64,000 nt of DNA, from NCBI GenBank assembly GCA_044358835.1, contig JBIKNF010000008.1:9873-73872 (forward strand), in the 5' to 3' direction. Below, in pieces: positions 7,836 through 10,439 of the stretch. A program made the translations under genes and the position numbers. Below the pieces are notes generated by a model that saw only the letters and a list, made by a program, of their open reading frames with translations, searched no databases and was not told the DNA's origin. The stretch comes from Vampirovibrionales bacterium. GTDB lineage: Bacteria; Cyanobacteriota; Vampirovibrionia; Vampirovibrionales; JAJTHC01. Each line of letters opens with the position of its first letter. Positions within the stretch are counted from its first letter, which is position 1.

Positions 7836-7871
7836 AACAGGGAAGAACCTTCGTTCTTCCCTGTTTGTTTT
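7836..7871 (+). terminator. Intrinsic terminator of the response regulator gene
   Basis: 13-bp perfect stem AACAGGGAAGAAC/GTTCTTCCCTGTT, 4-nt loop, T-rich tail. Confidence 0.8.
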
Positions 7872-8071
7872 GGATGTCTAGCGCTGTTTCTAGCTGGTCG
7901 GTCGTCAGAGACCTTTGCTCCGCCAAAGGTCTCCAACACCTCTAAAGGCGGCTTAAGGGAGGGAGGGTCTTGGTCGCCCCCCTCCCTTAAGAATCCCACC
8001 CCTCTCGCTTCTCCTTCGTTCCTGCCGTGCGCAAAATGTCTCGGAAGCCTCGCATTTAGTGCGCCGTCGGC
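7868..8071 (+). repeat. Structured dispersed element, copy C (divergent, internal deletion)
   Basis: Reverse-complement match to 10170-10439, e.g. GTCGTCAGAGACCTTTGCTCCGCCAAAGGTCTCCAACACCTCTAAAGGCGG is identical. Right boundary approximate. Confidence 0.85.
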
Positions 8072-8126
8072 AAGATGTTTATAAACCAACTAGTTCACTA
8101 GGCTAAATAATCATGTTGATTTTTGA

Positions 8127-8390
8127 CTCGTTGCACCAGCAGGCGGCCAAGCACTAAATCCGAGCGGGTGAGCGCACTGCGAATCCCCGAGCGATTTTGC
8201 GGACGTCGTGCAACGAGAATGATGCGAGGAGGTGGGGATTCAGGGGGGATTTTCAAGGGGGGACGAAGGGGAGGAGAAACGCAATGCGTCCTTCCCCGTC
8301 CCCCCTTGAACCGCCTTTGGGGGTTTGGGGAGTCTTTGGCGGCGCAAAGACCCCCAAGCACCAGCGTTAAACGGAGCCAGACATCCAAAA
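8127..8390 (-). repeat. Structured dispersed element, copy A
   Basis: Direct repeat of 10170-10439, sharing CCAAGCACTAAATCCGAGCGGGTGAGCGCACTGCGAATCCCCGAGCGATTTTGCGGACGTCGTG. Multiple hairpins. Confidence 0.9.
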
Positions 8391-8398
8391 AAACTATT

Positions 8399-10060
8399 TT
8401 AAACCGTAGCGGAGCCTTCTTTTGCCGTTGCCAAACGCTTGACTTCAAGGGCTTTAGCCACAAAGGCCGTAAACAAGGGGTGCGGATGATTCGGACGAGA
8501 TTTGAATTCAGGGTGGTACTGCACCGCCACAAAAAACGGATGGTTCTTTAATTCCACCACTTCCACCAGTTCACGATCCGGCGACGTGCCTGAAACCACC
8601 AAGCCTAGGCCTTCTAGTTGTTCACGATACTGGTTATTAAACTCATAACGGTGACGATGCCGTTCCATCACCACATCCGTTCCATACGCGTCATAGGCTT
8701 TTGTGCCCTTGATTAAGTGACAAGGATATTGGCCCAAACGCATGGTACCACCTTTTTCCGTAATTTCTCGTTGTTCGTTCATCATGGCAATCACAGGATC
8801 AGGCGTCTGCTCGTCAAACTCATAGCTATTGGCCAACGGAAGATTCGCCACATGACGGGCAAACTCAATCACCACGCACTGTAAGCCCACACATAAACCG
8901 AGCAACGGAAGCTGGTGTTCTCTCACGTAGCGAACGACATTTATTTTACCCTCAATCCCACGAGAGCCAAAGCCTCCGGGGATGACCACACCGTCTTTGC
9001 CTTCTAGTAAGGTGGCGATGGTCGCCTCATCCGTACAATGTTCCGAATCAATCCAGTGGAGCTTGACTTTGGTGGCCTGTTCAATCCCCGCGTGATTCAA
9101 GGATTCCACCACAGACAAGTAGGCGTCTGAAAGTTGGGTGTACTTGCCCACAATGGCTATTTCCACTTGGTGAGTAGGGTTTTTGACTTTGTCGACCATG
9201 ACTTTCCACGCACTGAGATTCGGTTCAGGGGTGTTTTGAAGATTGAGCACATTCAACACGGATTTGGCCAAGCCTTCTTTTTCCAAAGCCAAAGGCACTT
9301 CGTAAAGCGTTGAGAGGGTTTCGCCCATAATGACGTTTTCGTATTCAATATTGGTGAATAAGGCGAGCTTTTGTTTGTCTGCTCGAGAAAGAGGGTGTTC
9401 GGTACGACAAACGAGAATATCCGGTTGAATCCCGATACTACGTAAGGTGTTGACGCTATGCTGGCTGGGCTTGGTTTTGACTTCGCCACTGGTGGGTAAA
9501 TACGGAATGAGCGTGACATGAATAAAGCAGGCATTTTTAAAGCCCACATCATAACGAAATTGGCGAATGGCTTCCATAAAGGGCAAGCTTTCAATATCGC
9601 CAACCGTTCCGCCAATTTCGACAATCATGACATCAGGCGCCAAGCGCGTGGTGGCATCGATAATGCGTTGTTTGATTTCATTGGTGACATGAGGGATGAC
9701 TTGAACGGTGGCCCCAAGGTATTCGCCACGACGTTCTTTTTTTAGAATGGTTTGATACACCCGCCCTGCGGTGACGTTGTTGAGCTTGGTGAGGTTGGTG
9801 TCGATAAAGCGTTCATAATGCCCCAAGTCTAAATCGGTTTCAGCGCCGTCGTCGGTCACAAAGACTTCGCCGTGCTGATAGGGGTTCATCGTACCGGGAT
9901 CCACATTGATGTAGGGGTCAAATTTTAAAATGGTGGCGGTGAGACCTCTTGCACGAAGCAATCGACCTAACGAAGCCGCCACAATGCCTTTACCTAAGGA
10001 CGAGACGACGCCGCCTGTTACGAAAATATATTTGGTTGTGGCACTCATCATCATCATCAT
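8399..10060 (-). CDS. pyrG: CTP synthase
   Basis: [33 protein letters not shown], glutaminase GLCVG, RHRHRYE, QYHPEF. Confidence 0.98.
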
Positions 10061-10169
10061 CGTGGGAATCCTTAAGGTTGTGGGTGTTCTATTTTATTTT
10101 AGAAGAAACATAATTAAAATGCCAAGTCTTATAAAGTGATATTCAGATAAAATTGATGATTGTAAAGAA

Positions 10170-10439
10170 TCGTTGCATAAGCAGGCGTCCAAGCACTAAA
10201 TCCGAGCGGGTGAGCGCACTGCGAATCCCCGAGCGATTTTGCGGACGTCGTGGCAAGAAATGATGCGAGGAGGTGGGTCAAAAGGGGGTGGATTTTTAAG
10301 GAGGGGGAAATGAGGGAGGAGAAACGCAATGCGTCCTTCCTTCCCCCTCCTTAAACCGCCTTTAGAGGTGTTGGAGACCTTTGGCGGAGCAAAGGTCTCT
10401 GACGACGACAAGCATTAAACGGAGCTAGAATCCCAAAAA
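10170..10439 (-). repeat. Structured dispersed element, copy B
   Basis: Homologous to copies A and C. Abuts the dapA stop codon. Confidence 0.9.

Follow-up and report, generated by a model that had tools for sequence, protein, structure and literature searches.

What kind of DNA recurs, with diverged sequence and persisting hairpins, close behind three genes in a short part of a Vampirovibrionales genome? The question arises from a 64,000-nt stretch of assembly GCA_044358835.1 (contig JBIKNF010000008.1, positions 9,873 to 73,872; the whole of this stretch is called the window below), for which a preliminary description, made from the letters alone, had reported a three-copy structured element and had offered two explanations: a family of structured RNAs in 3′ untranslated regions (UTRs), or a mobile element with single-stranded DNA (ssDNA) hairpins, akin to REP/REPIN repeats or to a miniature inverted-repeat transposable element (MITE), whose mobiliser lies elsewhere. 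We name the copies A (plus strand, starting at ~7866), B (at the end of pyrG) and C (at the end of dapA). All three are copies of a small, non-coding, dispersed repeat family restricted to one genus, and their sequences, together with those of their relatives, make it probable that the family is a non-autonomous, TA-targeting MITE of the Tc1/IS630 type that has spread through a single genus of Vampirovibrionales.

A dispersed repeat confined to one genus

We compared the genome that holds the window (G000; 1.85 Mb, 30 contigs, 94.8% complete) with nine congeners (G001 to G009, of which G006 is a single contig and 96% complete); C numbers below denote contigs of G000, and L numbers denote loci fetched from the contigs of relatives. 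Used as a BLAST query, the 281 nt of copy C gave 55 matches in G000, a number far beyond chance, and the family that this genome-wide search for further copies uncovers is dispersed and also present in the congeners. Three copies are therefore what the window happens to hold: a profile built from ten full-length copies returned 70 hits in G000, which merged to 52 copies on 22 of the 30 contigs. This copy number is a lower bound, and the family breaks the assembly, about a dozen copies being located at a contig end or within ~100 nt of one. All 52 lie outside called genes. Merged copies measure 66–423 nt, and 355–514 nt where both of the end modules described below are present; solitary parts of the element also occur, corresponding roughly to profile positions 1–100, 65–160 and 156–275, and some copies have additional modules between these parts.

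All nine congeners carry the element, and the 31 other genomes searched from its family and order are without it. In a wider draw from the class, the 10 of 201 genomes that carry it all belong to the one genus (g1), with no match in the 191 genomes from 96 other genera. An exact 21-mer of the element's 3′ domain was found at no fewer than 118 places in the species collection, and among the 80 of these matches that were listed, every title reads Vampirovibrionales bacterium or Vampirovibrio sp. with the exception of one metagenome-assembled genome (MAG). This MAG, titled “Gammaproteobacteria bacterium”, holds many copies (L024, L031, L033 and other loci), and its title is probably a mislabel. 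Viral contigs gave no match to the element. Judged by titles, the full-text literature that was searched yielded no description of repeats or MITEs for Vampirovibrio, Vampirovibrionales or Melainabacteria.

Copies are polymorphic in presence between species. The spacer between dapA and pyrG holds copy C in G000 and G001 and a rearranged pair of copies in G007, and is 70 nt long and empty in G004; the pyrG loci of G008, G002, G006 and G009 have no copy. Among 30 element loci of G001, 11 (representing 10 distinct sites) have flanks that are 0–111 nt apart in G000 versus 283–658 nt in G001, and the reverse comparison shows many sites at which other species have the element and G000 has none. Since sister species lack insertions at the sites filled in the window, the three window copies are lineage-specific insertions and not conserved parts of the adjoining genes. 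At one site (C23:7880-7930, compared with L173), the place that the element occupies in G001 is taken in G000 by another small palindromic repeat (CCCTCTCCC...GGGAGAGGG), which suggests either shared insertion hot spots or replacement; the family of this palindromic repeat also adjoins an element in L152.

A further claim of the preliminary description, that the element always stands immediately 3′ of a gene, is reduced to a tendency genome-wide. With genes around the copies called by a rough open reading frame (ORF) caller, 33 of the 49 G000 copies that have a called upstream neighbour follow a gene on the same strand, and 16 do not. Where both neighbours were called, 14 copies lie between convergent genes, 8 between divergent genes, 11 in tandem contexts co-oriented with the genes and 2 in tandem contexts opposed to them. 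In the relatives, tandem contexts were co-oriented in 14 cases versus 10, a weak comparison that uses rough gene calls on flanks of 170–400 nt and retains orthologous sites. A preference for gene ends and T-rich tails nonetheless exists.

Termini, target site and candidate mobiliser

Outside the core profile, a subset of copies carries a left-end module of ~46 nt that starts with TATAGT and a right-end module of ~40 nt that ends with ACTATA. The two modules are inverted repeats over their first 11 nt and have a subterminal AAGTGG in common, and in G000 their profiles find 10 left ends (one weak cross-hit excluded) and 10 right ends with the inverted pattern TATAGTnTTTT...AAGTGG. Scored by eye, TA directly precedes TAGT at 13 of 17 left ends; ACTATA is terminal in 7 of the 10 right modules.

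The cleanest pair of filled and empty sites is provided by L153 of G001 and contig C27 of G000, where an element reading TAGTG...CACTA is inserted with duplication of TA (or TATA): the empty allele has a single TA, and the filled one has TA on either side of the element. Compared at the sequence level, the site of copy C is consistent with such a duplication. In G004, whose allele is empty, a single TA lies within the stop codon TAA of dapA, and the filled alleles have TA on both sides; the stop codon (10441-10443) reads TAG in G000, the insertion of copy C having rebuilt it from the duplicated TA and the first base of the element. The TA at 10130..10131, on the pyrG-proximal side of copy C, and the TA at 10442..10443, on the dapA side and forming the first two bases of the dapA stop, may thus be read as the two copies of the duplicated target, given that the site is filled in G000, G001 and G007 and empty in G004.

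Tail-to-tail pairs such as that formed by copies A and B are found at four more places in G000. A foldback pair in G001 (L172) has the left-end module at both of its borders and is missing in G000, and tail-to-tail pairs are therefore foldback forms of the element. Small and non-coding, present in many dispersed copies, bounded by terminal inverted repeats and flanked by a target that is duplicated in filled relative to empty sites, the element shares these defining features with MITEs, and its insertion at TA with duplication of TA is that of the IS630/Tc1-mariner group.

Genes for IS630-family transposases with the DDE_3 domain are present in six of the nine congeners. Insertion sequences (ISs) with DDE_3 ORFs lie in G003 (L181:1036-1977) and G008 (L179:1048-1981), and the ORF of L179 matches NF033545, the model for IS630 family transposases, at 125.5 bits against a cut-off of 100. 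The inverted ends of ISs of the L181/L179 type start with TATAGTATTTT and TATAGTAAAAG; the TATAGTATTTT end is identical over 11 nt to the end modules of the element and has AGTGG at a similar distance. From these similarities, a TA-targeting transposase of the IS630/Tc1 type is the best candidate mobiliser, the IS630-type assignment being probable, and we infer that ISs of the L179/L181 type mobilise the element. The proposal of a MITE-like element whose mobiliser lies elsewhere thus gains support from dispersal, genus restriction, filled and empty sites, inverted termini with TA, and matching IS630 ends.

Other candidates did not hold up. IS5-like ISs are abundant in G006, and their ends are unrelated to those of the element. 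The IS630 type found in G007 has different ends (CCAATTAAACGATTAAAT); fragments of the element adjoin it, an arrangement that we read as nested insertion. A 242-aa ORF (C20:44202-44927, opposite strand) was considered as a transposase and rejected, as it matches no Pfam family and occurs in just 3 of 19 genomes of the family. It lies within locus L187 (C20:42702-46427), where an element with both end modules (C20:43658-45268) contains a 1.1-kb insert flanked by direct repeats; a fragment adjoins an element in G007. The possibility that the element itself encodes a protein was also rejected: one top-strand frame stays open across most of the element, with a median of 82.5 codons, but shuffled sequences of equal composition reach 64 codons at the median and 88 at the 95th percentile, and the frames differ among copies. 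Nested modules are seen elsewhere too, with an insert of ~50 nt that contains a small palindrome (CCGCCATAGGCGG) lying inside hairpin 1 at C5:60669-60985, L151:1504-1820 and L153.

A second, unrelated MITE family of ~150 nt is present in G000 outside the window (C17:28639-28788, C11:16445-16594), and its ends (TATAGTRTTTTAAA...) share 19 nt with an IS630-type IS end in L181. Word counts in G000 give 35 occurrences of TATAGTNTTTT versus 5.5 expected; other abundant words, CTTCGTTGTCGCTACGAT with ~44 copies and TCTAGGAGCCTAGA with ~33, are carried by the second family.

The mechanism that we propose for the element would run as follows. An IS630/Tc1-type DDE transposase supplied in trans would cut the element at its inverted termini and paste it into TA, which becomes duplicated, the targets being mostly T-rich DNA just past gene ends or terminator tails. 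Read from the left, the element consists of the terminal (TA)TAGT module, a T-rich 5′ region with a sub-repeat of ~30 nt that is sometimes tandem, hairpin 1, the long hairpin 2, an optional middle module, the almost invariant 3′ domain and the terminal module ending in ACTA(TA). It exists as a short form of ~270 nt, as a form of 355–514 nt with both end modules, and as foldback pairs of roughly 460–670 nt. Deletion of end modules, nested insertion, and recombination or gene conversion between copies would later reshape the insertions, and the window copies would be such derivatives: A and B a foldback pair, and C a single copy that retains just the first bases of the left end. The hairpins would be palindromic DNA held complementary by arm-to-arm correction or by selection, and a structured 3′ UTR would arise from them as a side effect wherever transcription of the upstream gene extends through the copy.

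Hairpin covariation, the 3′ domain and competing explanations

To what extent the paired structure speaks for a function in RNA can be judged from an alignment of 54 full-length copies, of which the window supplied two and relatives supplied 52. The consensus fold comprises 55 pairs in three domains (hairpin 1, the long hairpin 2 and the 3′ domain), and 99.0% of pair cells in the alignment are paired. Changes on both sides affect 13 of the 55 pairs, versus 1–3 in slid controls, a value reached by 14 of 500 shuffles; cells with a change on both sides number 169, which none of the 500 shuffles reach. Each hairpin exists in about three discrete versions, and these are freely combined (three versions of hairpin 1, three of hairpin 2 and two 3′ modules). 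Because this variation is discrete and not gradual, the number of independent compensatory events is small. Among the pairs that are predicted for both strands, the top strand has 5 G-U cells and the bottom strand 8; wobble pairs confined to the transcribed strand, as a strand-specific structure would have them, were not found in this alignment, where G-U pairs are symmetric. It is the strand antisense to the upstream gene that folds more stably, and does so in 54 of 54 copies.

Two further observations concern processes acting on the DNA. In L047:381-649 hairpin 2 has its inner segment reverse-complemented, a flip inside the palindrome, and in orthologous copies of G000 and G001 at one site (C18a) hairpin 2 has been swapped for another version. 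It follows that arm-to-arm correction and gene conversion in DNA can explain the compensatory changes without a function in RNA. The earlier statement that structure is under selection is plausible; correction between the arms of a DNA palindrome can yield the same pattern as selection.

A number of observations weigh against the MITE interpretation and need to be considered together. At the left ends, 4 of the 17 are without TA, and at L065, L034/L154, L162, L083 and L062 the junctions are untidy, a few bases having been replaced and no TA being visible. The full 46-nt left-end module is missing from each of the window copies, and copies B and C appear to keep its first bases on the strength of very short strings (ATAGTTTTT, TATAGGTTTTT). 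The likeness between IS and element ends is short, amounting to 11 nt and AGTGG, and the end-module profiles do not match the ISs; the IS copies, moreover, look degenerate, with frameshifts in L181 and ORFs of ~200 aa. The G000 assembly contains neither an IS630-type gene nor DNA of such an IS. This absence says little because drafts lose multicopy ISs, as is evident from the IS5-like ISs (835 bp, DDE_Tnp_1), which give 93 matches in the one-contig G006 versus 0–1 in four draft congeners; draft MAGs of the genus under-report ISs. The preponderance of co-orientation in the tandem contexts of G000 (11 versus 2) is a further adverse point.

An odd observation concerns conservation. The termini are not the best-conserved part of the element, which is unusual for a MITE; instead, ~65 bases of the 3′ domain are almost invariant, with 98% column identity versus 81–88% elsewhere, a contrast that is partly biased by the collection of copies, the 54-copy set having been gathered via the 21-mer of this domain, so that the 21-mer itself is conserved by construction. 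Comparison of seven orthologous pairs of copies between G000 and G001 points the same way: 5 of 344 sites differ in the 3′ domain (1.5%), compared with 31 of 631 sites in the flanking non-coding sequence (4.9%; Fisher p = 0.007) and 182 of 4099 in the flanking coding sequence (4.4%). This slow change, about three times below that of the flanks, reflects either purifying selection or homogenisation by conversion, and conversion does occur, since a module swap is observed between orthologous copies. We therefore entertain, tentatively and as a doubtful possibility, that the MITE is a vehicle, and that the 3′ domain with the covarying hairpins is a functional module that the host keeps in place. 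Such a module might be bound by a protein, either of the host or a transposase, or might act as RNA and shape the 3′ ends of dozens of unrelated mRNAs; if this were true, a signal of genus-wide reach, post-transcriptional or chromosome-organising, would have been brought into the small genome of a predatory bacterium by a selfish element.

Selection on a domesticated structured RNA, whether as a 3′-UTR module that stabilises or terminates mRNA or through a 3′ domain that binds a host factor, would keep the stems paired, and so would agree with the strong covariation of the hairpins, with the 11 co-oriented versus 2 opposed tandem copies, with the 33 of 49 copies behind a same-strand gene and with a 3′ domain that changes about threefold more slowly than its flanks in orthologous copies. 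However, sister species have no insertions at the window sites, and the neighbouring genes evidently do without them; nothing marks the sense strand, given 5 versus 8 G-U cells and an antisense strand that is more stable in every copy; in relatives the orientation excess shrinks to 14 versus 10, on rough gene calls; and the inversion in L047 and the hairpin 2 swap at C18a are DNA-level processes acting on palindromes. No terminator-like or promoter-like site is present inside any of the three window copies. A search of Rfam, which the preliminary description had recommended, found no family that matches the element: a permissive search of positions 7000-11500 returned nothing beyond microRNA-model noise (E ≥ 0.07), and at gathering scores the whole window gave no match to the element, its sole match being one tRNA (41652-41723, minus strand). 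The suggestion of a structured 3′-UTR RNA family is not supported, given sites that are empty in sisters, pairing that is equal on both strands and an orientation that is no more than a tendency, and we consider it unlikely.

An intergenic mosaic resembling BIME or NIME repeats, spread mainly by homologous recombination, gene conversion or natural transformation and lacking a transposase of its own, would account for the free combination of hairpin and 3′ module variants, the module swap between orthologous copies, the other palindromic repeat found at the same site in G000 (L173) and the untidy junctions at several sites. Against this stand a clean insertion with defined termini and TA duplication, terminal inverted modules on single copies as well as on foldback pairs, and matching IS ends in congeners; nor does recombination alone put copies at new, unrelated sites, and we regard such a mosaic as a very unlikely origin. 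No abundant word resembling an uptake sequence was found in G000, and an uptake signal or a genome of the Neisseria kind was rejected on that ground. The hairpins, the conserved structured 3′ domain, the placement just past gene ends and the sites with no visible target duplication would also be at home in an element mobilised as ssDNA, whether of the REP/REPIN-RAYT kind or derived from IS200/IS605, possibly with a TnpB guide-RNA scaffold in its 3′ domain. Here the gene searches, which bear directly on the hairpin mechanism with HUH/RAYT or IS200/IS605 enzymes raised at the outset, are adverse: a search for the Y1 transposase domain (PF01797) finds nothing in G000 and, across the 10 genomes of the genus, a single weak match that scores 20 bits alone and 28.5 together with its in-frame neighbours; the TnpB zinc ribbon (PF07282) has one match among the 10, in G009, where element matches are fewest and weakest; and the one-contig G006 has neither. 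IS110 (PF01548) has no match in five genomes, and rve was found in one of five. In addition, REP/REPIN and IS200/IS605 families are not known to make inverted termini and a TA duplication such as are present here. Mobilisation as ssDNA is therefore largely refuted, and we give it hardly any credence.

Comparable repeats, window copies and neighbouring genes

The closest analogue of the Vampirovibrionales element is the Correia element of Neisseria (CREE/NEMIS), which is likewise small, non-coding, multicopy, intergenic and confined to one genus-level group, and which duplicates TA at its target. By sequence comparison the present element is nevertheless not a member of that family: the first seven bases (TATAGTG) are all that the two share, the 26-bp Correia repeat is not found in it, and the host phylum differs. 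The Vampirovibrionales element also consists of several independent hairpin modules, forms foldback pairs and has a candidate IS630-type partner in congeners; it is two to four times longer, at ~270–514 nt versus 104–157 nt for CREE. Correia repeat variants have inverted ends that begin TATAGTG, as do those of our element (PMC5039591). CREE are described as duplicating their target, as never shown to encode a protein and as moved by a mechanism yet to be determined, and they are reported to form promoters and to bind IHF and RNase III in some cases (PMC2649163).

MITEs derived from IS630/Tc1-mariner elements resemble the element in their TA duplication, their TA|(C/T)AGT-type termini and their lack of coding capacity. 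A DDE transposase, encoded by an IS with matching ends, moves such MITEs in trans. The present case differs in that the link to the IS comprises 11 terminal bases and a short subterminal motif, that the conserved core is without counterpart in the IS, and that conservation is higher in an internal 3′ domain than at the ends. BOX repeats of Streptococcus pneumoniae and ERIC/IRU repeats of enterobacteria are modular or hairpin-rich intergenic repeats that are co-transcribed and can alter mRNA stability. They have no sequence relation to the element and no TA-flanked TAGT termini, and their effects on RNA are known from tests on those families, in contrast to an element known here from sequence alone. 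REP/BIME and REPIN-RAYT systems are similar in that palindromic repeats lie just past gene ends, often in inverted pairs and mosaics. REPs are palindromes of 20–40 nt moved by a Y1 (RAYT) transposase; the units of the element exceed these tenfold in length and are bounded by inverted termini with TA, and no convincing Y1 gene was found in the genus.

We are fairly confident that the element is a MITE of the ordinary selfish kind and not a new regulatory RNA. Such a family would explain a striking trait of these genomes and, probably, a large share of the breaks in their assemblies, and should be masked or modelled when MAGs of this group are annotated and binned. The element can serve as a marker for the genus, and its presence/absence sites are usable for strain tracking. 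The IS630-type ISs and the MITEs together would offer a tractable pair in a non-photosynthetic sister lineage of the cyanobacteria, and the slow-evolving 3′ domain is the sole part that could hold more than selfish DNA.

Within the window, the three copies align with a mean column identity of 75%. Reading of positions 7600-10700, the alignment and a repeat finder agree with the preliminary description that they lie where it placed them and have the hairpins and compensatory changes that it listed; the repeat finder returns B and C as direct repeats and A as an inverted repeat of each of them. The stem of hairpin 1 is GAGACCTTTG/CAAAGGTCTC in copies A and C and GGGGTCTTTG/CAAAGACTCC in copy B; that of hairpin 2 consists of three different sequences, for which the repeat finder gives 15 nt at 100% in copy C, 14 nt at 100% in copy B and 15 nt at 93% in copy A. 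It was equally right about the arrangement, with A and B forming a tail-to-tail inverted pair between convergent genes and B and C forming direct repeats around pyrG, and about the close placement of all three copies behind a gene on the same strand, in the T tail of a terminator-like hairpin (A), 8 nt past the pyrG stop (B) and at the dapA stop (C).

Copy A (7866..8075, plus strand) lies downstream of a NarL/LuxR-type response regulator gene (7019..7816, plus strand), which was identified from the ORF list and from NCBIfam response-regulator matches. A terminator-like hairpin of this gene (7836..7865, plus strand), with a 13-pair stem followed by TGTTTTGG, precedes the copy, which starts in the T tail with its 5′ TTTTGG region and forms the left arm of the foldback pair. 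Its nhmmer hit (C25:17741-17936) corresponds to window positions 7869-8064, and its modules are hairpin 1 (7908-7933), hairpin 2 (7952-7991) and a short “A-type” 3′ module (~8029-8075). The spacer between the two arms (8076..8120) differs among pairs, as seen by comparison with the four other pairs of G000, except for the bases that adjoin copy B.

Copy B (8121..8393, minus strand) is the right arm of the pair, with an nhmmer hit (C25:17998-18261) at window positions 8126-8389. On the minus strand, its 3′ domain occupies 8125-8210, hairpin 2 lies at 8252-8310 and hairpin 1 at ~8327-8355, and its 5′ end adjoins the stop codon of pyrG, from which its TTTTGG is 8 nt distant. The pyrG gene, encoding CTP synthase (8399..10060, minus strand; NF003792, 847.8 bits), has copies B and C on either side. 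Copy C (10132..10441, minus strand), delimited by the repeat finder, the profile hits and the empty site in G004, comprises a degenerate right-end module (10132-10166), the 3′ domain (10167-10252), hairpin 2 (10295-10355) and hairpin 1 (10374-10399), all on the minus strand. It begins within the stop codon of dapA, where its 5′ end gives the last base of that codon; dapA, for 4-hydroxy-tetrahydrodipicolinate synthase (10441..11406, minus strand; TIGR00674, 257.7 bits), thus has the copy inserted at its stop.

A few minor features of this region can be added. The arms of hairpin 2 in all three copies (10295-10355, 8252-8310 and 7952-7991) read AAGGAGG and CCTCCTT, and so resemble a Shine-Dalgarno sequence and its complement. 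On the plus strand of copy C, AAGGAGGGGGAAATG is followed by a frame of 14 codons, which is not kept in the other versions of hairpin 2. Finally, the start of pyrG (10040-10060) is a run of ATG codons, of which there are five in G000, four in G001 and three in both G007 and G004.

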